From Ostreococcus lucimarinus (lineage: Eukaryota), in assembly GCA_000092065.1 (NCBI GenBank), contig CP000583.1: DNA of 64,000 nucleotides. One strand, given 5' to 3'. Positions 8,209 through 61,231 of this stretch are shown piece after piece. The translations under genes were made by a program, and so were the position numbers. Position 1 is the stretch's first letter. The number at the start of each line of letters is the position of its first letter. The notes under the pieces are model-generated. The model was not told the DNA's origin. It ran no database searches and saw nothing but the letters and a program-made list of their open reading frames with translations.

Positions 8209-10250
8209 ATGGTGCGACCGCGCGCCGCGGACGACGCGCGACGTCGCGAAGCGCCGCGCGAGACGCGTCGACTCGAAGACGCGCGCGGACTGACGACGAC
8301 GCGATCGACGCGCGAAATCGCGGTGTAGGTGGTGCTGTCGGCGGCGATCGTCACCAAGGGCGGTAAAGGTGCGTGGAGAAGATAACGATGCGTCGAACGG
8401 GACGCGCGGGGAGGCGCGGATGCGGTCGCGACGCGCGCGAGGGTGGGATTTCGAGACGAGGGCGGAACGGTCGAGATCAAAGCGAAAGAAGCTCGGTGAC
8501 GGAAGACTGACGGTGGTGACGCGCGTGCGATGATGATGTAGCGCTGGTGTCGAGGCAGTACGTGCAGATGACGCGCGTGCGCGTCGAAGGGTTGCTCGCG
8601 GCGTTTCCGAAACTCGTCGGAAGCGGGAAGCAACACACGTACGTGGAGACGGAAAACGTGCGGTACGTGTATCAGCCGCTCGAGTGCGGGACGATGTACT
8701 TGCTGCTGGTGACGACGAAGGGCAGTAATATCTTAGAGGATTTGGACGTGTTGCGGTTGCTGGCGAAGACGCTGCCGGAGTACACGCAAGGGCAGGTGGA
8801 TGAAGAGGGTGTGTCGTTCGCGGCGTTCGATTTGATCTTCGCGTTTGACGAGATCATCTCGCTCGGGTACAAGGAAAACGTAACGATGGCGCAGGTGAAG
8901 ACTTTCACAGAGATGAACTCGCACGAAGAAAAGCTGCACAAGATGATGATCCAGAGTAAGATCAACGACACGAAGGATGTCATGCGTCGCAAGGCTACGG
9001 AGATCGACAAGGTCAAGCACGAGATGCAGCAATCAGCGATGCAACGAAGCGGAGGTTACGGCGGCCCGAGCCGCGGATTCGGGGCGCGAGATTCGTTCGA
9101 TGCGCGCGGTGGTTTTGGTGGGCAAAGTGGCGGTTTCGGTGGCCAGCAGGGAGGTGGTTTTGGTGGGCAAGGCGGGTTCGGCGACGGCTCGAGCGGCAGC
9201 TTCGACGACGGACGCAACGACGAGTTTGGATACCTCGGCCGCGGCGGCGGCGGAAGTGGCTCGTTCGGTGACGACCACCCGACGAGTGGCGGGTTCAGAA
9301 CCAGGTACAGCGATGACGTGGGCGGATACGGTCAACAGAGCTCCCCGGGTATGCCCCAAAAGTCTCTCGCCGGGCCGAAGAAGGGCATGCAACTCGGTGG
9401 CAAGCCGAAGACGAACCAGTTCCTGGAGAGTTTGCGTGCCGAAGGCGAATCTGTGGACGCAGATTTCGGCATCGAACCTTCTCGACCTGAAATGCCCGTT
9501 GCGGCGGCGCCTGCGGCGGCGCCGACGGAGAGCGTGAGTCTGGTTGTGGAAGAAAAACTCAACGTCACCTTGAACCGCAACGGCGGATTGGAGCAAATGG
9601 ATTTGCAAGGCAACATGCTTCTCGAAGTGCGCAACGAAGACGACGCTCTCATTCGTGTCGTGACCAAGGCGGGTGAGAACGCTGGGTTTCAGTTCAAGAC
9701 GCACCCGAACATTGACAAGGCTCTGCACGCAAACGAGAAAATTTTAGGCTTGAAGGACCCCAACCGTCCGTTTCCGTGCGGCTCGGCGCTCGGCGTGTTG
9801 AAGTGGCGATTCTCCACTAAGGATGAATCTGCGCTGCCTCTCAGCATCAACTGCTGGCCGACGATCAACGGCGGAGAAACCGCGGTGAGCATCGAATACG
9901 AGGCGTCGGATGCGATGGATTTACAAAACGTCGTCATTTCCATCCCGTGCCCGCCGTGCCGAGACCCGCCCGCGGTGAACTCGTGCGACGGCGAATTCCG
10001 ATTCGACGCGCGCAACGGCGTCATGGAGTGGAATATCGAGCTCATCGACGACAGCAATCGAAACGGAAGCATGGAATTCGTCATTCCTGTGGCCGACACA
10101 GAAGCGTTCTTCCCCATCGACGTCCACTTTTCTTCCGCGAAGACGTTCTGCGATATCGAAGTCGCGAGCATCTCTCGCACGACGGATGGCGCCCCCGTGA
10201 CGTTTGGCGGTAGAACGATGATGCTCGTGGACTCGTACCAAGTCGTATAG
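8209..10250 (+). CDS. ARCN1: Coatomer (COPI) delta subunit. Proposed exons: 8209..8211 (ATG only), 8329..8368, 8542..10250.
   Basis: The main exon has a longin-like N-domain ([45 protein letters not shown]) and a mu-homology C-domain collinear with metazoan delta-COP. The upstream micro-exon [13 protein letters not shown] plus ATG restores the conserved [15 protein letters not shown] N-terminus. Introns are 8212..8328 and 8369..8541, each GT...AG with an ACTGAC branch motif about 35-40 nt from the 3' splice site. Confidence 0.8.
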
Positions 10251-13197: not shown

Positions 13198-15315
13198 TTA
13201 CGGCGGAGAGATGAACGCGTGACGCATCGGCTTCACCGCGCCCAGAGGAGTTTCCGGTGGTAAATGAGAAGCGTCGATGTTCCCACTCGCCACGGCATCG
13301 GCCATAATGGCGATAGATTTGATTCCACGCGGTGCTGTTCCTTGACGCTTCGGTGTTTGCACGGTGGCGCCGTACTTGACGTTTCCTTCGGAGTGCATGA
13401 AAGCGGGCGCAGGAGCCGCCTTGACGACTGGAGCCGGTGGTACCATCTCCGCGATAGGTGCCTCGGTCGGCATGACGATTGAAGCGTTCGCAGCGTACGC
13501 TGCTTTTTCTAAATTACGCTGAGCTGTCTTCACATACTGAGTTCGCCAAATCTCTTCGTCACACGTCGCCTCGGCGGCAGCATAAGCAGCGAGACTCGTC
13601 TCGGCGCGGAGTAAAGCCTTGTTGGTCACCAAATGAGCAGCCATTTCACTGCGAAGTAATTCTTCAATCACCGAGCGTGGTGCTGATTGGTCGCACATCA
13701 AATCGAAACGCGACGTCAGCGACGACAGACTTTGTTGCATCCCGATGAGTTTATGCGCCAAAATCGCGCTCCCTTGAATGACGCGATCGTTTTCCGTGCC
13801 GTGCGACGTACCCTCGCCCTTCATCTTTGCCATTTGAATTTGCAGCTGATGCATCGCCGTCTCAGAGTTGCTCAACAGTTGCTCGAGTCGGCCGACTAAC
13901 ACTTTGTATTCCGCTGCCTCTCTCTCAGCCTTGTGCTGACAAAGTTGTGCCGCCGCAGCCGTCATGTGCAGTTCGCACGATCTTGTGATGGCACCGTGAA
14001 GCTCGTCTCGTAGGGAACCATCCGGAATCTGATCAATACTCTCGCGAGTTGCTTGCGCGATTTGTTCCTGCGCGAGCGCCGTGTCCTCATTAATTGCCCC
14101 GAGATCGAGCTCGACTTGACGAATCCCTCGAATTGGTCGAGAAGGAGACATCACTGGCGCTTGAGGCTTGGTCGTCATTCGCGAAGGCTTCACCGGCGAC
14201 ATGGGAATACCACCAACCGAAGTGAGGGCGTCGAGGAGAACACCCATGCCGGCGTGCTGGTCGTCGTCCGACGTGTGCTCGGGCGTCATTTCTCCGTGTA
14301 CACTCGACAGCGACTGACGGGCCTTCTTCCGGCTTCGATCTTTCGCGGCAAGCGTGGACTTGGGAATCGCCGTCGACATCTGCGACGGTAGCACGAAAGC
14401 TGGGACCGTCCAGTGGTTGGACAACCCCTTGCGGTTGCTTCCGCACCCGCATTCAAGCTTGTCCGCGGTGAGAAGAACGTCGTCGCAGTTGCCCTTGGTA
14501 CCGATGATCTGCACCTGGGCGAGCAGTGGGCAAAGCTCGAGCGCTTGTAGGTTGAATCGAGTGACAGTCCACAAATAGTTATCGTCGTTGCCATACCTGT
14601 TCCTGTCGAGGTTTGTTGAGTACTCGTTGCCTTCCGCGTCGGACAACTGATGACGCCTAAGTTCTTCTGGCACTCTGTGCGTACCCGAGTTCAGCGCCAC
14701 AACCTTGGTACGGCGAGTGTTGACGCTGAGTAATTGCAGAATGTTACGAGCACCATCCGTACGTTGGCTTTCAGCCATATCCAAAGCGCGGAGCGTCTGC
14801 AGAAAAGCGCTCGTCACCGATGGACACGCCTCTGTCATCTTTGGCAACTGCTTTTTAACAATCGCCGGAATAGCGTGCTCGTAGTGTTCCCAATGAAAAT
14901 TGATACGATATAAAAGTTGGTTGTTCGTCGGACGTTGCCTCGGCGTCGTCGCGTCCCTCGCCGCGTTGGGGGATTTCATCGTCGCCGGGCTCAACTTTTT
15001 ACCGCCGCTCGCGTGCGAGCCAGCGTTGGACGATTTCCCTACGCTTCTTTGCTGCGTCGACGCCGACGCCTTGAATCCCAAACCCGACTCAATCTTCATA
15101 CGTTTCGCCCCCGTCGCGCCGTTAACGTAACGCCCACCGTCATTCTCCGCATTCGAAGACCTCGACCCGCTCCTCGACATCGTCGACGTCGACGCCTCTG
15201 CCCGCGCTTCCTCCTCCTGCGTCCTCGGCCGCGTTCTCGCCACAAAATCTCCACCCTGAAGTCGGTTCATCGTCGGTTCATACTGCATTTGCCAAAAACC
15301 GTCGTCAGTCGCCAT
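13198..15315 (-). CDS. Hypothetical protein with leucine-rich-repeat-like and coiled-coil regions
   Basis: 705-aa ORF starting MATDDGFWQMQYEP. The middle has LRR-like periodicity (NILQLLSVNTRRTKVVALNSGTHRVPEEL...LQALELCPLLAQVQIIGTKGNCDDVLL). The C-terminal part is predicted coiled-coil. Confidence 0.5.
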   Translation of the reverse strand: MATDDGFWQMQYEPTMNRLQGGDFVARTRPRTQEEEARAEASTSTMSRSGSRSSNAENDGGRYVNGATGAKRMKIESGLGFKASASTQQRSVGKSSNAGSHASGGKKLSPATMKSPNAARDATTPRQRPTNNQLLYRINFHWEHYEHAIPAIVKKQLPKMTEACPSVTSAFLQTLRALDMAESQRTDGARNILQLLSVNTRRTKVVALNSGTHRVPEELRRHQLSDAEGNEYSTNLDRNRYGNDDNYLWTVTRFNLQALELCPLLAQVQIIGTKGNCDDVLLTADKLECGCGSNRKGLSNHWTVPAFVLPSQMSTAIPKSTLAAKDRSRKKARQSLSSVHGEMTPEHTSDDDQHAGMGVLLDALTSVGGIPMSPVKPSRMTTKPQAPVMSPSRPIRGIRQVELDLGAINEDTALAQEQIAQATRESIDQIPDGSLRDELHGAITRSCELHMTAAAAQLCQHKAEREAAEYKVLVGRLEQLLSNSETAMHQLQIQMAKMKGEGTSHGTENDRVIQGSAILAHKLIGMQQSLSSLTSRFDLMCDQSAPRSVIEELLRSEMAAHLVTNKALLRAETSLAAYAAAEATCDEEIWRTQYVKTAQRNLEKAAYAANASIVMPTEAPIAEMVPPAPVVKAAPAPAFMHSEGNVKYGATVQTPKRQGTAPRGIKSIAIMADAVASGNIDASHLPPETPLGAVKPMRHAFISPP

Positions 15316-15862
15316 CTACACGCGACGATGATCGCCGTCGCCGTCGTCCGGCGGTTACGCCGCCGGCGTCGATCGCGGATCGTCATCACGCCCATCTTCT
15401 TCCCCACCACCGCCCACATTCCCTTCCGTTTCGCGCGCGTTTACGAGATCACACCACCACGCACCTTCACCGGCGGTTTCCTCGCGCGAATCTCCCGCAT
15501 CACGCGCTCGCAGGGCGTCGTTCGCTCGATCGGAGTCGTCGTTTCGACACGTCGGTCGTCGTCGCGCGATGATGCCGTCGCCGTCGCGCGGTTCCGGACG
15601 CGTTTCGCGCGCGCGGGTGCGGCGCGTTCGTCTCACGACTTTCTGCTCGATTCGCGCGCGGGCGAGCGCGTTGGCGTCGTCGAGGACGTCGGGCGCGTCG
15701 TCGATTGCCGCCGACCGCCAATGCCGGAACGAAAAATTTGAATTTTGGCGGCAAAAGTGCAGAAGTGGTCAATTCGGCGGCGATCGATCGAGCGGTGCGA
15801 CGAAGGGCGAATGACGCACGCGCGACGAATGATTGACGTAGAATACAAAACGGTGAAGATGA

Positions 15863-18970: not shown

Positions 18971-21355
18971 TCATGGTGCGACGCGCGCGCGATCGATCCA
19001 AGCCTCGCGCGCGCGACGCGACCGCGCGCCGACGACGCGACCGGTGTCGAAAGATGAAGATCGAAGATCTCGACGAACGCGCGGTGATGACGAACGACTG
19101 ACGCGGTGTGACGCGACGCGAACGCCGAGCAGGGGTTCGGAGACGCGCAAGAAGACGTCACGGACGCCGAGGGAGCGCTGTTTCCGATATTCGTCGTGAG
19201 CATGCTCGGGACGTTTTTGATTCCGGCGACGATCGCGCGACTGGCGAGCGCGGCGACGAAGACGGAACGCGGGAGCGGAGAGGGGAAGGGTGACGCGGCG
19301 AGCTCGAAGAAGCAGACGCAGACGATATCGACGGAGATTAGTGACGTAGAGAGTGAATGGGGAAAGGCGGCGATGGCGTCGATGAAACGGCGTAAGATGA
19401 CGACTGGGAGGCGCGTGGGCGGATTGTTTCGAGGGACCAATTTGTGGTACACGCTCGGGTGGATCGTGATGATCGCGCTGTCCGTGTACATCACGAGAAC
19501 GCCGTTACAGGAGAAACGGTTCGATCCGTACGATATCTTGGACCTGCGCGTGGGGGCGAGCACGAAGGAAATTAAGAGCGCGTACAGAAAGTTGTCGCTC
19601 AAGTATCACCCAGACAAGAACCCGGATCCCGCGGCGGCGGTTTATTTCGCCGAGTCCATCGCGCCGGCGTACAAGACGCTGACGGACGATGTCGCGCGAG
19701 AGAACTACGAAAAGTACGGTCATCCTGATGGTAAACAGAGCACCAAGCTCGGCATCGCGTTGCCCGAGCAACTTTTTGGAAAGGGTGGCATGGCGCCGGT
19801 GATGCTCATCGTGCTCGTTGTCGGAGGTATCATGCTTCCGCTTTTCATCGCTATGTGTTCGATCCGTAAAATGAACAAATTTGGTGGAAACAACGTGCTC
19901 AAGCAGACACAGGTTAATTACGCGCGCATGTTAAAGCCGGTGCTCGCGCTCTCAAAGGTTCCGGAGACGCTCGCCGTGGCGCACGAATTCATCGAGACGC
20001 CGTTCCTCGATGGACAAGATGCGGCCGTAAGCCAGCTTCTCAAAGATTACAAGAACGAGTACGAATCGAAAGATCAAAAGCTCATGAAGCGGTTGCCGAC
20101 CATCATCAAAGCACACATGTTGATCCTTACTCAGACGTCCCGGCGTGCGGCTTCGCTTCCACCTGTGCTCTCCGCGGATGCTAAAAAATTGGTGCTCACC
20201 CTGCCTCGATTGATCGAAGAGTTGCTCAAGATCGCAGCGATGCCAATCAACCGCGCCGGTCATTCGTACGCGCGACCGCAGATCAGCGTCATGGAGTTTT
20301 ACCAATGCTTCACTCAAGGCGTGCCTCTTTCTTCGCGAAAGCGAGATGAAGACGGAAACGCGAGTTTGCTTCAGCTCCCACATTTCTCCACGGAAAACCT
20401 CAACGGTGTTGCAAAAAAGTGCAAATCCCTGCACGCGCTGATGAAATTATCGAGCGAGGATCGCAAAAAGCTGTTGATTGGCGCAAGATTTTCTGAGGCC
20501 GCGACGAAGGATGTCGAGCGTCAGCTCGCGGTGATCCCACGTGTGACGACTTTTGAGGCGAAAATATCTGTCGACGACGACGACGACACCATCATGGAAG
20601 GAGATTTTGTCACCGCGAAGCTCAAGATTAAAATTGGACGATCTGGTGGACCGCTAGGTGGCGCGTTGCCTCCGTTACCGTTTTGCGCCGCTGATCGTAC
20701 AGAGGGTTGGCGCGTGTTCGTGTACGATCAATCCACGAACACCCTCTTAGCTAGCTCGACGTTAAAGCAGCGCGATGTAGAGAAGGCTGAGCGCGGGGAT
20801 GAACCTTTGGATTTGTCTGTCCAGTTCGTCGGCTTGCCGAGCGGTATGTACAACGTGGGCGTGTCGCTGATGAGCGACTATTGGATTGGTGTCGACGCCA
20901 AGGTTTCGTGCATGATGAAGGTGCTGAAGCCCACCGCGACGAACGTGGCAGCGCGCGAAGCCAAGTCCGCATCGCGTTCGGACGTCACGAAACCGAACGC
21001 TGAAGTGGAGGAGGAAGAATCGAGCGAATCGGACTATAGCGATGACGACGAGGACGATTACAGCGATGAGGACTATCCTTCGGATGAAACGGGAACGTCG
21101 GAATCCGATGATGAAGCCCGGGCTAGAATTGACGCGATGCGACGTCCTGAACAGACCAAAAACACAGTAAAGGAAGGTGCGACCGCTGCAAAACCGGCGT
21201 CAGTGCCGCAGCGAAAGACATCGACATTTGGACAGAAGGCGGCAGCGGCACGTCCCTCGATTCCAGGGCAAGCGGTTGTCCAGCAGACGCCGGCCACGGA
21301 AAAACCGGTCGTCGCCGAGGAAGTAAAGCCGGATACTGTTGATAACGTAGACTAA
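18971..21355 (+). CDS. SEC63: Translocation protein Sec63 (J-domain plus Sec63/Brl domain). Proposed exons: 18971..18973 (ATG) and 19133..21355.
   Basis: J-domain DPYDILDLRVGASTKEIKSAYRKLSLKYHPDKNP, then GHPDGKQSTKLGIALP and LLQLPHFSTENL, collinear with metazoan SEC63. Conserved N-terminal TM (GALFPIFVVSMLGTFLIPAT) lies upstream of the first in-frame ATG at 19202 with no ATG before the stop at 19109. This implies an ATG-only 5' exon at 18971 with donor GTGCGAC and branch ACTGAC at 19096. The acceptor could instead be 19129 or 19132. Confidence 0.75.
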
Positions 21356-22293: not shown

Positions 22294-22745
22294 GTGCGTA
22301 GAATGTACGGACTGTTTACACATACGACCGGGACATTCGGACATTTGGTCACGTTCCGTGTGTACGCTCGTCACGACACCTCGCGCGCGCGCGTCGCCCG
22401 CGCCGTCTTTACGACGCGCGACGACAGGTGCGCCGGCGACGACGACCCGACGCGACGCGCGCGCGGCGAAGACGACGCGCATCGATCGTTCGACCGCGCT
22501 TCGACGGCCCGCGACGTCGCGCGCGACGCCGAGACGCGGTCGAACGCGCGCGCGGTCGATCGCGCGCGGGCGCGCGCGACGATCGCGTCGGACGGCTCGC
22601 GTGACGCGCGCGATCGCCGCGCGATGACGCGCGCGCGATGATGCTGTCGGGAAAATCATCGTTCGCGCGCGGTCGACGCGCGGGCGGTCGATCGCGCGCG
22701 GGTGATGGGTGAAGCGCGCGCGATGGGGAGGCGCGCAAAGCCCTA

Positions 22746-22821
22746 GTGAGAAGAGGGTTGACGCGACGGAGGCGGGAAGGGCGAGGGACTGACGAATGAC
22801 GCGCGCGTTCGAAAATCACAG
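22746..22821 (+). other. Putative 5'UTR intron of the RPL12 gene (GTGAGA...ACTGAC...cacAG), ending 4 nt before the ATG
   Basis: Donor-like GTGAGA at 22746. ACTGAC branch-like motif at 22787-22792. AG at 22820-22821. ATG at 22826. Confidence 0.3.
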
Positions 22822-22825
22822 AAAG

Positions 22826-23326
22826 ATGCCGCCTAAGTTCGACCCGAACTCCGTTTTGGAGATTTTCATGCGCGCCACCGGCGGTGAAGTCGGCGCTGCG
22901 TCTTCGCTCGCGCCGAAGATCGGTCCGCTCGGTTTGTCGCCGAAGAAGGTCGGGGAAGACATCGCGAAGGAAACCGCCAAGGACTGGAAGGGTTTGCGCG
23001 TGACGGTGAAGCTCACCGTGCAAAACCGTCAAGCGAAGGTGTCTGTCGTGCCGACGGCCTCCGCCTTAGTCATTAAAGCGCTCAAGGAGCCGTTCCAAGA
23101 CCGCAAAAAGGTCAAGGGTATCTTGCACACGGGCAACTGCTCTTTGGACGACATCATCGAAGTCGCGCGCACTATGCGCCCGAGGTCTTGCGCCAAGTCG
23201 CTCGCCGGTACCGTCAAAGAAATTCTCGGTACGGCCAAGTCTGTGGGCTGCACCGTCGAGGGCGAAGACCCGTCGGACGTGCAAGAATCGATCGATTCCG
23301 GGGACATTGAAATTCCGGAAAAGTAG
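22826..23326 (+). CDS. RPL12: 60S ribosomal protein L12 (uL11)
   Basis: [48 protein letters not shown]...[30 protein letters not shown] is near-identical to eukaryotic RPL12 throughout. Confidence 0.95.
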
Positions 23327-27759: not shown

Positions 27760-28482
27760 ATGTCCGCGCAGTTCACGCGCGCGGGCGACCCGAACGATGA
27801 CCGCGGTCCGTCGATGATGGTGCGACACGCCGAGCAGCGCGCGCGCGAGGCGGCGGCGAACGCCGACCGGTACCTACGCGAGACGTTCCCGAGAGCGAAC
27901 GCGACGACGCTGGCGCTGGCGCTCAAAGAGTTCAACAACGACGTCGCGCTGGCGAAGGACGCGTTGAAGGAGTTCTTCGAAGAGGAAGACGGAGGCGGTG
28001 GGCGAGGACGGCGACGGGGACGGGGACGAGGCGGGGAGGAGGACGCGCGACGCGACGGAAAGCGACGGCGCCGCGACAAAAAGGAGAAGCGAGAGAAGGA
28101 TAGAAAGCACAAGCGCAAACACAGGCGACGCTCGCGTTCGCGTTCGCGTTCGCGTTCGCGCGAGAGATGGCGCGAGCGACGACGGGACGAAGAGGCGGCG
28201 CCGCGACGCGCGTTCGGTAACGACGAAGAGGAGCGCCGAGCCGAGCTCGCGGAGGCTCGCAAGAAAGACGAAGAGGCGAGACAGAAAGAGATCGTCGCCA
28301 GACTTCGCGCGCACGGCGACGTGAGCGTGATGCGCGAGCAAGAGATACTTCGCCAGAAGTTGCAAATCGCCCATCGCGTCGGCGACGCGAGCGAAGCGGA
28401 ACGCATCAAGGCTTTGCTGTCAGTCGACGACGCGCTCGCGAAAGCCGCGAAGAGTAACTACGGCTTTCGACCCGGAGATTGA
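27760..28482 (+). CDS. CUE-domain protein with an arginine/serine (RS) and K/R/E-rich low-complexity region
   Basis: N-terminal LRETFPRANATTLALALKEFNNDVALAKDALKEF fits the CUE/UBA-like consensus (MFP...AL...N.V..A...L). It is followed by RSRSRSRSRSRERW and a KKEKREKDRKHKRKHRRR region. Confidence 0.5.
   Translation: MSAQFTRAGDPNDDRGPSMMVRHAEQRAREAAANADRYLRETFPRANATTLALALKEFNNDVALAKDALKEFFEEEDGGGGRGRRRGRGRGGEEDARRDGKRRRRDKKEKREKDRKHKRKHRRRSRSRSRSRSRERWRERRRDEEAAPRRAFGNDEEERRAELAEARKKDEEARQKEIVARLRAHGDVSVMREQEILRQKLQIAHRVGDASEAERIKALLSVDDALAKAAKSNYGFRPGD
28134..28163. repeat. (GCGTTC)5 hexanucleotide microsatellite encoding the RSRSRSRSRS tract
   Basis: The direct repeat cgcgttcgcgttcgcgttcgcgttcgcgttcgcg is visible. 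Confidence 0.8.
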
Positions 28483-38805: not shown

Positions 38806-39924
38806 TTACTTGCCGAGAACCGTCTCGTTGAAGCGTTCGACTTCCTTGGCGGAGCCGATGCAGAGCGCGGTGCGTTGGTCAACGGTGTTGATTTGGACGT
38901 CCAAAACGGAGCCGCCGGTGACGCCGTCAGACGTCTTACCACCAGACTTTTCGACGAGCAAACCGAACGGCGCGGCTTCGAACGCGAGGCGAAGCTTGGC
39001 CGGGGATTTGGCGGAGGTCGGGTTGGAGAACACACCTTGGTTCTTGGTGAATTGCTGGTACACATCCGGGACGAGGCCGCCAGAGTAGCGGAGCGTGTAG
39101 CGTTCGTCCATGTAGTAGTCCAACAACTTCTTGTAGCCTTCGGTGTCTTGCGCGGCGCGCATGTTCGCCGGAGAGAAGATCTTGGAGGTTTCGTTGATCT
39201 TAATGTTCATGCGGGAGCAGATCCACGGCTCGAAGGAGCCGTCCGGAAGTTGGCAACCCTCCGGCGTGCAGCCGTAGGAGAATTCGTAGACGCCGTCGTC
39301 GAGGGCGACGATGACGGTGGTACGCGGACCGTAAAGCGCGACGAGAGACGTGCGCTGGTCGCGGCCGGTGGCACCGAGCAAACCGTCGGCGCCAGTCCCG
39401 GAGGTCGAGTCCCAGATACCGATGATGGTACCGACGGCCCAGTTGTTGTCGACGATGGAGGAGCCGTCGAGCGGGTCCCAGCACACGGTGTACTCGCCGT
39501 TCGGGTTGCACTGCACAACTTCCGGCTCTTCTTCGGACGCACCGTACGCCACAGTTTCAGAGCTCTTCACGCAATCCCACATGAGGTTATCCGCGATCAC
39601 GTCCACGGAAAGTTGCGCGTCACCAAAGGTGTTCGCGCTCCCCTCCACGGTGACGAGCGCCGAGCGCAACGCCTCGGTGATATCCGCGCAGCAATCGAGC
39701 ATCTCGACAATCACCTTGCGCAACTTTTCGTCCGCGCAGTGCTTACCCAAGATGTTTTCAAGGCTCGGGTACGAGTCTTGCTTCTCCGTCGTCGTGTAGA
39801 ACGACGTCGACGAGGCGCCGTATTCGTGCGCTCGCACGTCCCGGCGCACCGGCTTCGCCGCTTGGCGTCGCTTCGTCGCTTGGTGCGTCTTCGCGGAGCA
39901 TCGCGCGCGCGTCGCCGCGTTCAT
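38806..39924 (-). CDS. SBPASE: Sedoheptulose-1,7-bisphosphatase, chloroplast (FBPase superfamily)
   Basis: ATG at 39924. [29 protein letters not shown]...GATGRDQ...LYGPRTT...[15 protein letters not shown]...[22 protein letters not shown] is collinear with SBPase ([29 protein letters not shown]...YTLRYTGGMVPDVNQ...AKLRLLFEVAPLGFLIEKAGG). R/K/T-rich transit-peptide-like N-terminus. Confidence 0.9.
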   Translation of the reverse strand: [372 protein letters not shown]

Positions 39925-40329
39925 CTGTCGTCGTAAAGATCCGCGTTCCCATCGTTCGTCAGTCGCCGCGCGTCCTCGCCGCCGTCTCCCGCCGCGCCGT
40001 CGCCGCGCCGCGCGCGCGTCGTCCCGCCGCCCCGATCGTCTCGCGCCCCATCGCGTCGCGTCTCTCGCCCCCGTCGACGCATCGCTCGCGCGCGCGCACC
40101 GTGGACATGGCGGACATGATCGAGTTCGAGTGTCTTCGCGCGCGTCGCTCGTGCGAGGCGCGGTGTGCGTCGCGCGCGCTCGCGTCGCGCGTCGCCGGCG
40201 AGTGGATAAGATCATTCGGTCCGTGTGTCGATTCGTGTCGATTCGTCTCACGTATGGGCAAACAGTGTACATATCGACGGCAGACGCGCCGACGCCGACG
40301 ACGACGCGCGCACACGGCGACGCGCGACG

Positions 40330-40466
40330 ATGTCGACGACGGCGCGCGCGACGGCGTCGGCGTCGGCGCGACGCGCGACGCCGGCGCGCGCGCGCGGCGC
40401 GACGCGAACGCGCGCGGTGCGCCGACGCGCGATCGCGAGACGCGCGACCGGGGACGGGACGACGCG

Positions 40467-40499
<33 letters not shown>

Positions 40500-41091
40500 G
40501 GCGGCGGCGGCGCGCGCGTCGAAGAAGTGGAAACCGAAACCGCTGCCGTCGACGTTCGGGGACGCGGCGTCGCCGAGAGCGCGGTCGCCGTTCGACGCGA
40601 AGACGGGGGCGACGTCGCCGTTCGAGAAGGCGCCGGGGACGTCGGCGTCGCCGTTCGAGAAGGCGACGAGCGACGGGACGGGTAAACCGGCGAGTCCGTT
40701 CGGGGCGGTGGCGACGCCGGTGACAGAGGGCGGGGCGGCGAGCGGGGACGCGACGACGACGCGCGCGAAGGCGGCGGCGAGCCCGTTCGGGGCGGCGGAG
40801 GCGCGGTCGCCGTTCGCCGCGGCGCCGGGCGCGGCGAAGAGCCCGTTCGGAGGAGCGAGCGCGGCGAAGAATCCGTTCAACGAACCGGAAGCCGCGCTGT
40901 ACGGCGCGAAGCCGGTGGCGAAGAAGCCGGCGGTGAAGGTGGAAGAGAAGACGTCGTTTTTGGAGTCTTTGCCGCGACCGACGCTCGGGCAATTCTTCAT
41001 CGTGTTCTCGTTCGTGACGATCATTTCTTTGATGCTCGGGACGTTTTGGGTCGTCGTCAACGCCGGTGGCGTGCACTTTAACGATTCTTAA
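40330..41091 (+). CDS. Hypothetical tail-anchored protein with eight or more SPF(E/G/D) repeats, an R/A/T-rich presequence and a C-terminal TM helix
   Basis: ATG at 40330 (MSTTARATASASARRATPARARG). Repeats ASPFGAV/SPFEKA/SPFDAK/SPFGGAS run through the middle. C-terminal LGQFFIVFSFVTIISLMLGTFWVVV. The (GACGCG)6 tract at 40468..40503 encodes DADADADADA. Confidence 0.5.
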
Positions 41092-57905: not shown

Positions 57906-59153
57906 TTACTCCTCCTTCCTTGGGGGAAGAATGAATATGTTTGAGTGCATCCCGAGACATCCCGTGACTTGCGCGCAAAGCGTCGCGCTTCGGTGAAGCA
58001 ACAAAAATAACGCGGCGCCGAGGAGGATGCCGCCGATGAACATGTTGCCCGCGGGCACAAATGTCGTCATGATCATGATGAACCCGCTCAACCAGTTGAA
58101 CAGCGGCCAATCGGGGTCTGAAACGCGCAGGCGCATGATGCTCATCTCGGCTTCGGCGAAGAGAAGCATGCTCGTGGCGTGCGCCAACGCCAAGTTTGGC
58201 GCAAAATACAAGCACACGCCGTGAAACAACTCGTTGACGATGCAAAACAACGCAATACGCGTCGGATTACGATGCTTTGGCCAGTGTGGTGGCACTTCTT
58301 TTGCCGTGACGGTGCGATAAAACGTCATCGCGCGAGATCGCACGCCGAACAACGCCCCGCCGTCGACGAGCAGGCGCACCACGCCTCGCTCGCCGATGAT
58401 GGGTAGAGTGATCGTAAACGCATTCATCGCGTCGCTCCCAACGAATCCGAAGACAATCATACTTATTTGCAACAGGATCTGCATCTCTTGCACGTCAAAA
58501 GCGGTGTTCACAGGTAACAATCCCGTGTACGTGCTCGAAACCGTGTCGACGGCGAAAAAAATCCGGCTCGACGTCATCATCATCACCGCGAACGCTCTCG
58601 CCGCGGGCGTCGCGATACCGACGGCCAATAAATCAACGAAAATAATCCCGTACACGCACGTGCAAATCGCATCGCATCCGTGATCGACGACTTCTCCCAA
58701 CGGCGACCCGCTCTTCGTTCGTCTCGCTTGCTTACCGTCGATGCCGTCCGCCGTCTGATACGCAAACATTAAAACAGCGCTCACCGCGTACATCCACGAC
58801 GGCGCGGTGTGCGCCAGCACTGGCGTGTGCGTCCAATACAACGCGTACGTCACCATCACCAACATTAATCCGCCGAACGTCAACGCGTTCGGCGCCACCC
58901 ACAGCGGACACCACCGTTCGACGACGTACGTCCACCATCGCTCCAAAAACAGCTTCTCAAACGACGTCGACGGCGGTGATGTATACTTGTACGAGTGCAC
59001 CTGCGCGCACGTGCGCTCGGACGCGCCCACGTGCGCGCGTTTCGCTTCGCGCTCATTTTTTTGGGCGTAGCACACCAAGTCCTCGTTCGACCCATCGTGT
59101 CCACCGCGCGTCAGCACATCGAGGCGCGCGCGTCGAACGGCGGCGATCGGCAT
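57906..59153 (-). CDS. CDP-alcohol phosphotransferase (choline/ethanolaminephosphotransferase, CPT1/EPT1-like)
   Basis: Catalytic motif DGIDGKQARRTKSGSPLGEVVDHGCDAI matches D-G-x2-A-R-x8-G-x3-D-x3-D. N-terminal WTYVVERWCPLWVAPNALTFGG and multiple TM helices. Confidence 0.85.
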   Translation of the reverse strand: MPIAAVRRARLDVLTRGGHDGSNEDLVCYAQKNEREAKRAHVGASERTCAQVHSYKYTSPPSTSFEKLFLERWWTYVVERWCPLWVAPNALTFGGLMLVMVTYALYWTHTPVLAHTAPSWMYAVSAVLMFAYQTADGIDGKQARRTKSGSPLGEVVDHGCDAICTCVYGIIFVDLLAVGIATPAARAFAVMMMTSSRIFFAVDTVSSTYTGLLPVNTAFDVQEMQILLQISMIVFGFVGSDAMNAFTITLPIIGERGVVRLLVDGGALFGVRSRAMTFYRTVTAKEVPPHWPKHRNPTRIALFCIVNELFHGVCLYFAPNLALAHATSMLLFAEAEMSIMRLRVSDPDWPLFNWLSGFIMIMTTFVPAGNMFIGGILLGAALFLLLHRSATLCAQVTGCLGMHSNIFILPPRKEE

Positions 59154-59317
59154 CGCGGCGGCTTTCGATCTTCGCGTCCGCGTCGCTTCGGGTCCGCGCG
59201 CGCGACGTCGGCGTCGTCTTCTGCCGTCGCGTTCGGCGGGACTCTCGTCGTTCCAGTGTCAACGAGATCTCATCGCGCGCCCTTCGTCCTCTGCGCGCGA
59301 ATCCGGGACGCGGCGCG

Positions 59318-61231
59318 ATGGCAGGCGGTGTTGCGGTGGCGTCGGGAGAGATCCGGCACGGCGATAGGGTCTTCAGTGGGAACTCTGGCCCCGCGCAGCG
59401 CGAACAACCCATAAACAAAGAACTCATCGCGCACTTCAAAAGCAAGGGAGACAGTGTGTCCTGGGGCATCGCTGCAAGCATAGAGAACTACGAGGAGGAT
59501 ACGAAGAGGCCAGTGTTGTCGGGCGCATGCATCGCGTCGCTCTACGACCAAGAGACCGAGCGCGAGTTGGCAGAGGAGGTGGAGAACAGAATTGAGCGGG
59601 TGCTAAGCGACGACGCAGCCTTGTTGAAAATACGTCGATATTTGAAGACCTTCCACGCGGACGAGCGCGAATGGGATGTGAGAACGTGTGCAGCGGCGGC
59701 TCGAGGGGGCAACTTGGAGTGTTTGAAATATCTGCACGAGCACGGGTGCGCGTGGGATAAGAGTGCGTGTGAAGCGGCGGCTCAAGGTGACCACTTGGAG
59801 TGTTTGAAATATCTGCATGCGAACGGGTGCACATGCGATGAGAGTGCGTGTTTAGCAGCGGCTGAAGGTGGTCACTTGGAGTGTTTGAAATATCTGCACG
59901 AGCACGGGTACCCATGGAGTGAGTGGGTGAGTTTAGCAGCGGCCGAAGGCGGTCACTTGGAGTGTTTGAAATATCTGCACGAGCACGGGTGCGTATGGAA
60001 TAAGAAAACGTGTCGAGCAGCGGCTCGAGGTGGCGACTTGGAGTGTTTGAAATATCTGCACGAGCACGGGTGCGCGTGGGATGAGAGTGCGTGTGAAGCG
60101 GCGGCTCGATGTGGTCATTTGGAGTGTTTGAAATATCTGCATGAGCACGGGTGCCCGTGCGATGAGAGTGCGTGTGAAGCGGCGGCTAGCTGTGGCGACT
60201 TGGAGTTTTTGAAAGACCTGCACGAGCACGGGTGCCCATGGGATGAGAGTGCGTGTGAAGCGGCGGCTCTAGGTGGTCACTTGGAGTGTTTGAAATATCT
60301 GCACGAGCACGGGTGCGTATGGAATAAGAAAACGTGTCGAGCAGCGGCTCGAGGTGGCGACTTGGAGTGTTTGAAATATCTGCACGAGCACGGGTGCGCG
60401 TGGGATAAGAGTGCGTGTTCTGCAGCGGCTGGACGCGGTCACTTGGAGTGTTTGAAATATCTGCACGAGCACGGGTACCCATGGAGTGAGTGGGTGAGTT
60501 TAGCAGCGGCCGAAGGCGGTCACTTGGAGTGTTTGAAATATCTGCACGAGCACGGGTGCGTATGGAATAAGAAAACGTGTCGAGCAGCGGCTCGAGGTGG
60601 CGACTTGGAGTGTTTGAAATATCTGCACGAGCACGGGTGCCCGTGCGATGAGAGTGCGTGTGAAGCGGCGGCTAGCTGTGGCGACTTGGAGTTTTTGAAA
60701 GACCTGCACGAGCACGGGTGCCCATGGGATGAGAGTGCGTGTGAAGCGGCGGCTCTAGGTGGTCACTTGGAGTGTTTGAAATATCTGCACGAGCACGGGT
60801 GCGTATGGAATAAGAAAACGTGTCGAGCAGCGGCTCGAGGTGGCGACTTGGAGTGTTTGAAATATCTGCACGAGCACGGGTGCCCGTGCGATGAGAGTGC
60901 GTGTGAAGCGGCGGCTAGCTGTGGCGACTTGGAGTGTTTGAAATATCTGCGCGAGCACGGGTGCCCGTGCGATGAGAGTGCGTGTGAAGCGGCGGCTCTA
61001 GGTGGTCACTTGGAGTTTTTGAAAGACCTGCATGAGCACGGGTGCGCATGGGATAAGAGTGCGTGTTCTGCAGCGGCTCGAGGTGGTCACTCGGAGTGCT
61101 TGAAGTACTTGCACACGCACGGGTGCCCCGGGAATAAGCGTGCGTCTGAAGCGGCGGCTGGAGGTGACGTCATGGAGTGTTTGAGTTTGAAGTACTTGCA
61201 TAGATCGCTCAAACGAAAGATTTACAGGTAG
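59318..61231 (+). CDS. Ankyrin-like repeat protein: about 18 tandem 27-aa units of HLECLKYLHEHGC(P/A)WD(E/K)SAC.AAA.GG
   Basis: ATG at 59318. The first 58 codons of the ORF-track entry overlap the CPT gene and were excluded. The repeat shares the AA..GHLE.LK.L...G core with ankyrin repeats but is 27 aa rather than 33 aa. Confidence 0.75.
   Translation: MAGGVAVASGEIRHGDRVFSGNSGPAQREQPINKELIAHFKSKGDSVSWGIAASIENYEEDTKRPVLSGACIASLYDQETERELAEEVENRIERVLSDDAALLKIRRYLKTFHADEREWDVRTCAAAARGGNLECLKYLHEHGCAWDKSACEAAAQGDHLECLKYLHANGCTCDESACLAAAEGGHLECLKYLHEHGYPWSEWVSLAAAEGGHLECLKYLHEHGCVWNKKTCRAAARGGDLECLKYLHEHGCAWDESACEAAARCGHLECLKYLHEHGCPCDESACEAAASCGDLEFLKDLHEHGCPWDESACEAAALGGHLECLKYLHEHGCVWNKKTCRAAARGGDLECLKYLHEHGCAWDKSACSAAAGRGHLECLKYLHEHGYPWSEWVSLAAAEGGHLECLKYLHEHGCVWNKKTCRAAARGGDLECLKYLHEHGCPCDESACEAAASCGDLEFLKDLHEHGCPWDESACEAAALGGHLECLKYLHEHGCVWNKKTCRAAARGGDLECLKYLHEHGCPCDESACEAAASCGDLECLKYLREHGCPCDESACEAAALGGHLEFLKDLHEHGCAWDKSACSAAARGGHSECLKYLHTHGCPGNKRASEAAAGGDVMECLSLKYLHRSLKRKIYR
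59690..61150. repeat. Tandem array of near-identical 81-bp coding repeats with duplicated higher-order blocks of about 250-490 bp
   Basis: cacttggagtgtttgaaatatctgcacgagcacgggtgc recurs every 81 bp. The block 59880..60080 repeats at 60470..60660. The block 60148..60400 repeats at 60640..60890, almost base for base. Confidence 0.85.

Follow-up and report, generated by a model that had tools for sequence, protein, structure and literature searches.

Start-proximal GT-AG introns in the SBPase gene and, most likely, in the RPL12 leader of Ostreococcus lucimarinus

Genomes that have kept few introns tend to retain them near the 5' ends of genes, a bias that has entered the textbooks (cf. Mourier and Jeffares 2003 and Sakurai et al. 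2002, both cited in PMC3488318). The ribosomal-protein introns of Saccharomyces cerevisiae, with their TACTAAC branch sites, resemble the introns described here in being few, in combining a near-invariant branch site with a strong donor, in lying adjacent to start codons, and in being enriched in highly expressed genes. The two systems differ in that the yeast motif is ACTAAC and the Ostreococcus motif ACTGAC, and in that Ostreococcus is GC-rich; they belong to separate lineages, and the likeness is one of convergent evolution. Plant leader introns located near the ATG are known for intron-mediated enhancement, of which the polyubiquitin and EF1-alpha genes are classic cases. They share with the putative RPL12 intron a short non-coding first exon, an intron end 1-10 nt before the ATG and a highly expressed gene, although this likeness is one of arrangement only. 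The SBPase intron is unlike them, its first exon being coding.

The closest described system is the canonical intron of O. lucimarinus itself. Among EST-confirmed introns outside chromosome 2, Irimia and Roy (2008) found ACTGAC in 87% and GACTGACG in 66.5%, together with a donor consensus of GTGCGTG, a 3' end that prefers CGCAG (C at -5, purine at -4), and a branch site-to-AG distance that peaks at 20-35 nt (PMC2483917). Where introns lie with respect to the start codon was outside the analysis of that study. The octamer GACTGACG was also given as the canonical Ostreococcus branch motif by Verhelst et al. 2013 (PMC3879977). Lanier et al. 2008 reported more introns in highly expressed genes and 16-20% of genes as intron-containing (PMC2367439); RPL12 and SBPase are both absent from their EST tables. 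Among the papers searched, none explicitly states or quantifies the start-codon proximity of Ostreococcus introns. Two other intron types occur in related settings. Introns in the low-GC region of chromosome 2 in Mamiellales are 40-65 nt long and AT-rich, with no recognisable branch motif or strong donor (PMC3491373, PMC2483917). Micromonas introner elements of the IE-C type carry the same GACTGACG motif and are short, and their repeated copies share sequence identity along the whole length (Verhelst et al. 2013, PMC3879977).

The window analysed here is a stretch of 64,000 nt from contig CP000583.1 of O. lucimarinus CCE9901. Its GC content ranges from 52 to 70%, and the O. tauri orthologue of its SBPase gene resides on record CAID01000003.2, which we take to be chromosome 3 of that species. 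The window is therefore an ordinary GC-rich part of the genome, outside the low-GC region of chromosome 2. It contains six canonical introns, that of RPL12 being putative and that of Sec63 predicted (Table 1). All six lie in a 5' UTR or within the first 14 codons, in keeping with a preliminary description of this DNA that had proposed start-proximal introns as a recurring feature. Five of the approximately 30 genes in the window carry such introns, which fits the published proportion of intron-containing genes (16-20%; PMC2367439). With lengths of 76-182 nt, 62-77% GC and strong signals, these introns differ from those of chromosome 2 in the same genomes. Pyrimidines make up only 39-47% of the nucleotides from branch site to AG.

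Measured against the canonical introns of O. lucimarinus (PMC2483917), the SBPase and RPL12 sites share the ACTGAC/GACTGACG motif, followed by gaps of 31 and 26 nt, the GC-rich background and the lack of a polypyrimidine tract. The donor is of the same GTGCG(T/C/A) type, except that RPL12 has GTGAGA; otherwise nothing essential differs. Very likely, each site comprises the branch site and acceptor of an intron of the canonical U2-type GT-AG kind that characterises the GC-rich, intron-poor bulk of the Ostreococcus genome, the SBPase intron being a coding one and that of RPL12 most likely residing in the leader.

Table 1. Introns and neighbouring features in the 64,000-nt window (a slash marks an exon-intron boundary)
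Feature	Position	Strand	Signals or basis
delta-COP intron 1	8212..8328	+	ATG/GTGCGA ... GGACTGACGA, 32 nt, TAG; directly after the start codon
delta-COP intron 2	8369..8541	+	inside codon 15, phase 1; GTGCGTG ... AGACTGACGG, 28 nt, TAG
Predicted-protein intron, after codon 12	15283..15464	-	GTGCGTG ... CGACTGACGA, 19 nt, CAG
Sec63 intron (predicted)	18976..19129	+	ATG/GTGCGA ... CGACTGACGC, 25 nt, GAG; alternative CAG 3 nt further
RPL12 exon 1 end (putative), telo-box-like AAAGCCCTA abutting the donor	22737..22745	+	conservation across lineages
RPL12 5' UTR intron (putative)	22746..22821	+	76 nt, GTGAGA ... GACTGACG (22787-22794), 26 nt, CACAG
RPL12 CDS	22826..23326	+	166 aa + stop; exact match to XP_001416788.1 / A4RV66, O. 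lucimarinus CCE9901
SBPase exon 2, remaining CDS + stop	38806..39924	-	ORF, opens with an in-frame ATG
SBPase intron 1	39925..40099	-	175 nt, GT-AG, phase 0, after codon 6
SBPase branch motif GACTGACG	39957..39964	-	31 nt between ACTGAC and AG; identical to the published motif
SBPase 5' splice site GTGCGCG	40093..40099	-	6/7 of the published consensus GTGCGTG (PMC2483917)
SBPase exon 1	40100..40155	-	transcript contigs; start codon 40117..40115 + 5 codons, MSAMST

At SBPase, the minus strand reads gcgACTGACgaacgatgggaacgcggatctttacgacgacAG/ATGAACGCG, with ACTGAC at 39963..39958, AG at 39926..39925 and ATG at 39924. At RPL12, the plus strand reads ccctaGTGAGAagaggg...gggACTGACgaatgacgcgcgcgttcgaaaatcacAG/aaagATG, with GT at 22746, ACTGAC at 22788..22793, AG at 22820..22821 and ATG at 22826. 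Both strings had been quoted in the preliminary description, and a check of both strands finds them at these positions. That description read ACTGAC and the following AG as branch site and acceptor, and at SBPase transcripts bear this out. The segment 40099..39925 is spliced out of SBPase mRNA, because four independent transcript contigs from four samples (Logan SRR15845142, SRR3473044 and SRR28369012, and JGI 3300009608) join 40100 directly and exactly to 39924. The donor on which the proposed intron had been made to depend, somewhere within 40000-40300, is GTGCGCG at 40099. The 3' end of the intron is GACAG, which retains only the purine at -4 of the CGCAG preference.

In contigs L003, L004 and L005 the match to the window is exact as far as 40100 and resumes at 39924, and the SBPase transcript contigs are 99.8-100% identical to exon 2. 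One of the spliced contigs carries a 5' adapter remnant and another a SMART template-switch oligo, which identifies them as cDNA. Two contigs have 5' ends at about 40155 and 40153, and the cap-proximal end marked by the SMART oligo (L004) lies near 40127. The predicted spliced protein of 378 aa, in which ATG 40117 is joined to 39924, is found verbatim in a public protein collection; a near-identical 378-aa protein comes from an MMETSP transcriptome. The exon 2 ORF contains Pfam FBPase domains, has homologues named sedoheptulose-bisphosphatase and shows 89% identity to its O. tauri counterpart. In two Logan transcript contigs, L002 (bases 1-348) and L038 (bases 1-303), unrelated sequence is fused upstream of O. 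lucimarinus 5' UTRs, and these are probably chimeric assemblies.

The preliminary description had placed this intron in the 5' UTR. The intron stands, but its assignment to the 5' UTR does not. Exon 1 consists of a leader of about 10-38 nt followed by ATG TCC GCC ATG TCC ACG. The ATG at 40117 is the first AUG of every SBPase transcript contig, with no ATG upstream and a purine at -3, and it is in frame with 39924 (MSAMST/MNAAT). In O. tauri the genomic DNA reads ATGGCGTCCGTGACCTCCACC/GTGCGTG ... GGACTGACGA, 26 nt, TAG/ATG, and the curated protein model, MASVTST/MRTAQ, begins at the upstream ATG; the annotation of this species is based on RNA-seq, with 89% of its introns validated (PMC4378021). 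A third lineage has the transcript L040, encoding MSTTTT/MRAAT, and the genomic contig L041 with a 276-nt intron in the same place. The coding part of exon 1 is divisible by three in all three lineages (18, 18 and 21 nt), and its peptide is Ser/Thr-rich in each. With the transcript's first AUG located in exon 1, in frame and conserved in three lineages, the intron is a phase-0 coding intron after codon 6, and ATG 39924 is codon 7. A leader intron would require that ATG 40117 be unused and that translation start at ATG 39924. An ATG does follow the acceptor directly in the three lineages examined, and most public gene calls (246 contigs) contain the 372-aa protein of the ORF alone. However, the position, context and frame of ATG 40117, the exon length kept at a multiple of three, a composition like that of transit peptides, and the start of the O. 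tauri model all speak against this arrangement, which we consider quite improbable. From the scanning model and the conservation of frame, we infer that AUG 40117 is used rather than 39924. Judging by their composition, the six additional residues look like part of an apparent chloroplast transit peptide.

If the SBPase intron is retained, the frame opened by ATG 40117 stops at a TGA within the branch motif ACTGAC itself (39958-39963 on the minus strand; ORF 39959..40315), such that unspliced RNA would give a 52-residue peptide. Approximately 50 nt upstream of the SBPase 5' ends is an I-box/GATA-like heptamer, GGATAAG (40204-40210 on the plus strand; CTTATCC on the gene strand), which O. tauri (L001) and the third lineage (L041) also have at a similar position upstream of their SBPase genes. 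This heptamer occurs nine times in the window versus 2.3 expected, an excess that is partly owing to a tandem repeat elsewhere. Divergent from SBPase is a 288-aa ORF (40225-41091, plus strand) that contains the motif SPF(E/G) repeatedly and has a hydrophobic C-terminus. Should this ORF be a genuine gene, it would have a promoter region of about 100-200 nt in common with SBPase.

For RPL12, conserved signals make a 5' UTR intron at 22746..22821 likely. Homologues of plants and algae have the N-terminus MPPKFDP in common, so any intron here must reside in the leader. The putative intron stops 4 nt short of the ATG at 22826, and splicing of 22745 to 22822 would bring a TAA into frame immediately before it. 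Its donor, GTGAGAA, shares with GTGCGTG only the GT and the G residues at positions 3 and 5, and is off consensus at +4. The 3' end is CACAG in the window, and CGCAG in strain L013 and in a second clade.

Eight lineages of Mamiellophyceae were compared upstream of RPL12, comprising O. lucimarinus strains, the second clade, O. tauri, and relatives with 90% and 81% identity, the last of which is probably Micromonas. All eight keep the series (A)CTGAC, 20-34 nt, AG, 1-10 nt, ATG. Six of them also have a telo-box-like AAAGCCCTA, replaced by ACCCTAA in the most distant relative, with a GT donor 0-12 nt further on, and the donors of the orthologues read GTGAGA, GTGCGA, GTGTGG and GTGCGT. The inferred intron varies in length from 76 to 259 nt, and its interior is unalignable. 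Comparison with the divergent strain L013 reveals no differences among the 77 positions of 22669-22745, within flanking sequence that is 7-8% different. The intron itself has six differences, all of them outside GTGAGA, GACTGACG and CAG. The first is at intron position +7, which is exactly where the substitution pattern shifts.

The AAAGCCCTA element, extended by a G at 22737-22746 (plus strand), occurs only once in the window and is also found upstream of RPL12 in L015, L027, L053, L054 and L056; every Ostreococcus-type lineage has it directly before the RPL12 donor. A more distant relative has GACCCTAAC in this region, followed by CAG/GTGCGT. The element may be a promoter or leader element of ribosomal-protein genes, like the telo-box of plants.

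The predicted RPL12 junction had no match in a scan of metagenome contigs, a collection biased to genomic contigs. A control scan for the start of the RPL12 CDS returned only 12 contigs, all of them long and genomic, and the negative result for the junction therefore has little weight.

The main rival to a leader intron in RPL12 is a transcription start beside the ATG. Transcription would then begin at about 22820-22822 to give a very short leader with no intron, and AAAGCCCTA and GACTGACG would be promoter elements, the latter at about -30. Consistent with such a start, no contig carries the junction of exons 1 and 2, and exon 1 is absent from all seven contigs with the exact 166-aa RPL12. 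Four contigs with the 166-aa ORF begin at 22820-22824. One of these, L007, begins at 22821 directly after an adapter remnant and has a Logan run accession in the numeric range of an RNA-derived contig; a transcription start at 22821 would also explain where it begins. Very short 5' UTRs do exist in O. lucimarinus, as the SBPase leader of about 10 nt in L004 demonstrates. However, the way these contig starts cluster reflects selection: a contig that extends beyond them on the upstream side is called as a 176-aa ORF from ATG 22796, a product present in 1282 blocks of the public collection. The JGI contigs that start near the ATG are DNA assemblies from a series that includes a 966-kb contig. The starts at 22820-22824 were thus rejected, as a selection artefact, both as a transcript 5' end and as a splice discontinuity. 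(Strains L006 and L012 lack the ATG within the intron.) Also against a start beside the ATG, GACTGACG is a documented branch motif of O. lucimarinus, and we know of no promoter role for it. Across lineages in which the intervening DNA has diverged in sequence and length, a donor-like GTG(A/C/T)G persists together with the branch motif and an acceptor of the form (C)GCAG or CACAG, and conservation is strongest in a block upstream of the donor rather than at -35..-1 of 22821. We regard such a transcription start as unlikely. The intron could also be real and use as its acceptor the second AG (22824-22825), which directly precedes the ATG (AAAG/ATG) and would parallel the AG/ATG of SBPase. This choice appears very unlikely, since the first AG after a branch site is normally chosen, and in RPL12 it is at 26 nt, within the usual range; other lineages have an acceptor-like (C)GCAG 4-10 nt before the ATG. 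A leader intron that ends at 22821 is the preferred reading.

The preliminary description had likened both sites to introns in the delta-COP and Sec63 genes, and these do display the same signals in the window, with a GACTGACG-type branch site followed after 25-32 nt by AG. Three RNA-derived contigs (L037, L038 and L039) contain the splice junctions of both delta-COP introns and so confirm them. For the intron at 15283..15464, the spliced 706-aa product is the NCBI model XP_001417083.1. The Sec63 intron (18976-19129), with its GACTGACG branch site, is predicted from sequence and very probably real. The conserved N-terminal segment of Sec63 has no in-frame ATG of its own, and two spliced models had no match in the public protein collection. 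The NCBI model for this gene (18973-21355, plus strand), XP_001416787.1, is partial and lacks the N-terminus. It also omits 28 residues (SEWGKAAMASMKRRKMTTGRRVGGLFRG) that belong to the uninterrupted ORF, which suggests that the model carries a spurious internal intron. Elsewhere in the window, a long ORF (58976-61231) contains a tandem array at 59671-61184 (plus strand) in which an 81-nt (27-aa) unit is repeated 18.7 times at 81% identity.

The context of every ACTGAC and ACTAAC copy in the window was inspected. The bare ACTGAC hexamer is not enriched in these 64 kb, where it occurs 17 times versus 21.4 +/- 4.8 expected. Six of the 17 copies, each at a gene's 5' end, have an intron context with a GTG(C/A)G donor upstream and an AG 19-32 nt downstream. 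The remaining 11 are coding or antisense sequence and were rejected as introns (3249, 10647, 11049, 12488, 14313, 21204, 28424, 35178, 41442, 51949 and 53624). The extended 8-mer GACTGACG, present at both the SBPase and RPL12 sites, occurs 11 times versus 4.5 +/- 2.1 expected, a count reached by one of 100 shuffles. A third ATGGTGCGA, at 27817, is coding sequence and so was rejected as an intron signal. With so few of its copies in intron context, ACTGAC alone is weak evidence for an intron. What counts is the full arrangement of donor, GACTGACG, 19-32 nt and AG beside the start of a conserved ORF.

Other origins and functions for these introns were considered and rejected. An all-against-all comparison of the six introns revealed no similarity beyond splice motifs and short GC-rich low-complexity matches. 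Unlike introner elements, they lack similarity along their whole length, and an introner-element origin was rejected on these grounds. The idea that the introns house a snoRNA or another structured RNA was likewise rejected, since a search of the whole 64-kb window gave no Rfam hit at the gathering score and shuffled sequence folds at least as well as the SBPase intron (z = +1.7).

The known workings of the spliceosome suggest how these signals could operate. U1 would recognise the strong GTG(C/A)G donor, and U2 would pair with the near-invariant GACTGACG such that its penultimate A is bulged. The first AG located 19-32 nt downstream of GACTGACG would serve as the acceptor. Because there is no polypyrimidine tract, the strong branch site presumably carries recognition, as it does in yeast. 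In SBPase, a tiny exon 1 composed of the leader, start codon 40117 and five codons is joined in frame to exon 2 to yield MSAMST-MNAAT. In RPL12, splicing most likely removes a 76-nt segment of the leader, which follows a very short non-coding exon 1 ending in AAAGCCCTA and stops 4 nt short of the ATG. Intron loss in streamlined genomes may spare 5'-proximal introns, and promoter-proximal introns may aid expression.

The phenomenon is a known one, in that motif, spacing and donor consensus were already published for O. lucimarinus in 2008. The six start-proximal introns of the window represent the familiar 5' bias of intron-poor genomes, and biologically there is nothing unexpected in them. Their practical value is for the correction of gene models. 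As the preliminary description had expected, annotation that relies on ORFs is misled by such introns, and ORF-based catalogues of this abundant marine alga mis-start its genes. For SBPase, a 372-aa protein that lacks exon 1 is called instead of the 378-aa protein on hundreds of contigs. For RPL12, a 176-aa product that starts from an ATG inside the likely intron occurs in more than 1200 blocks, versus seven contigs with the correct 166 aa. For Sec63, the public model is a partial one. Such models become easier to repair once it is recognised that a first exon may consist of nothing more than the start codon.

A broader design rule for Ostreococcus and the Mamiellophyceae can be proposed only tentatively, and it may well not hold. 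According to this rule, canonical introns would reside almost exclusively at the start codon, with a first exon composed only of the leader plus the ATG or a few codons, and ribosomal-protein genes would carry a module in which a telo-box micro-exon abuts the donor. The proposal is based on the six canonical introns of the window, all of which comply, and on the RPL12 module, which is kept from Ostreococcus to the relative with 81% identity. If the rule is true, a AAAGCCCTA or ACCCTAA element that ends a micro exon 1 at the 5' splice site would couple the core promoter to splicing.
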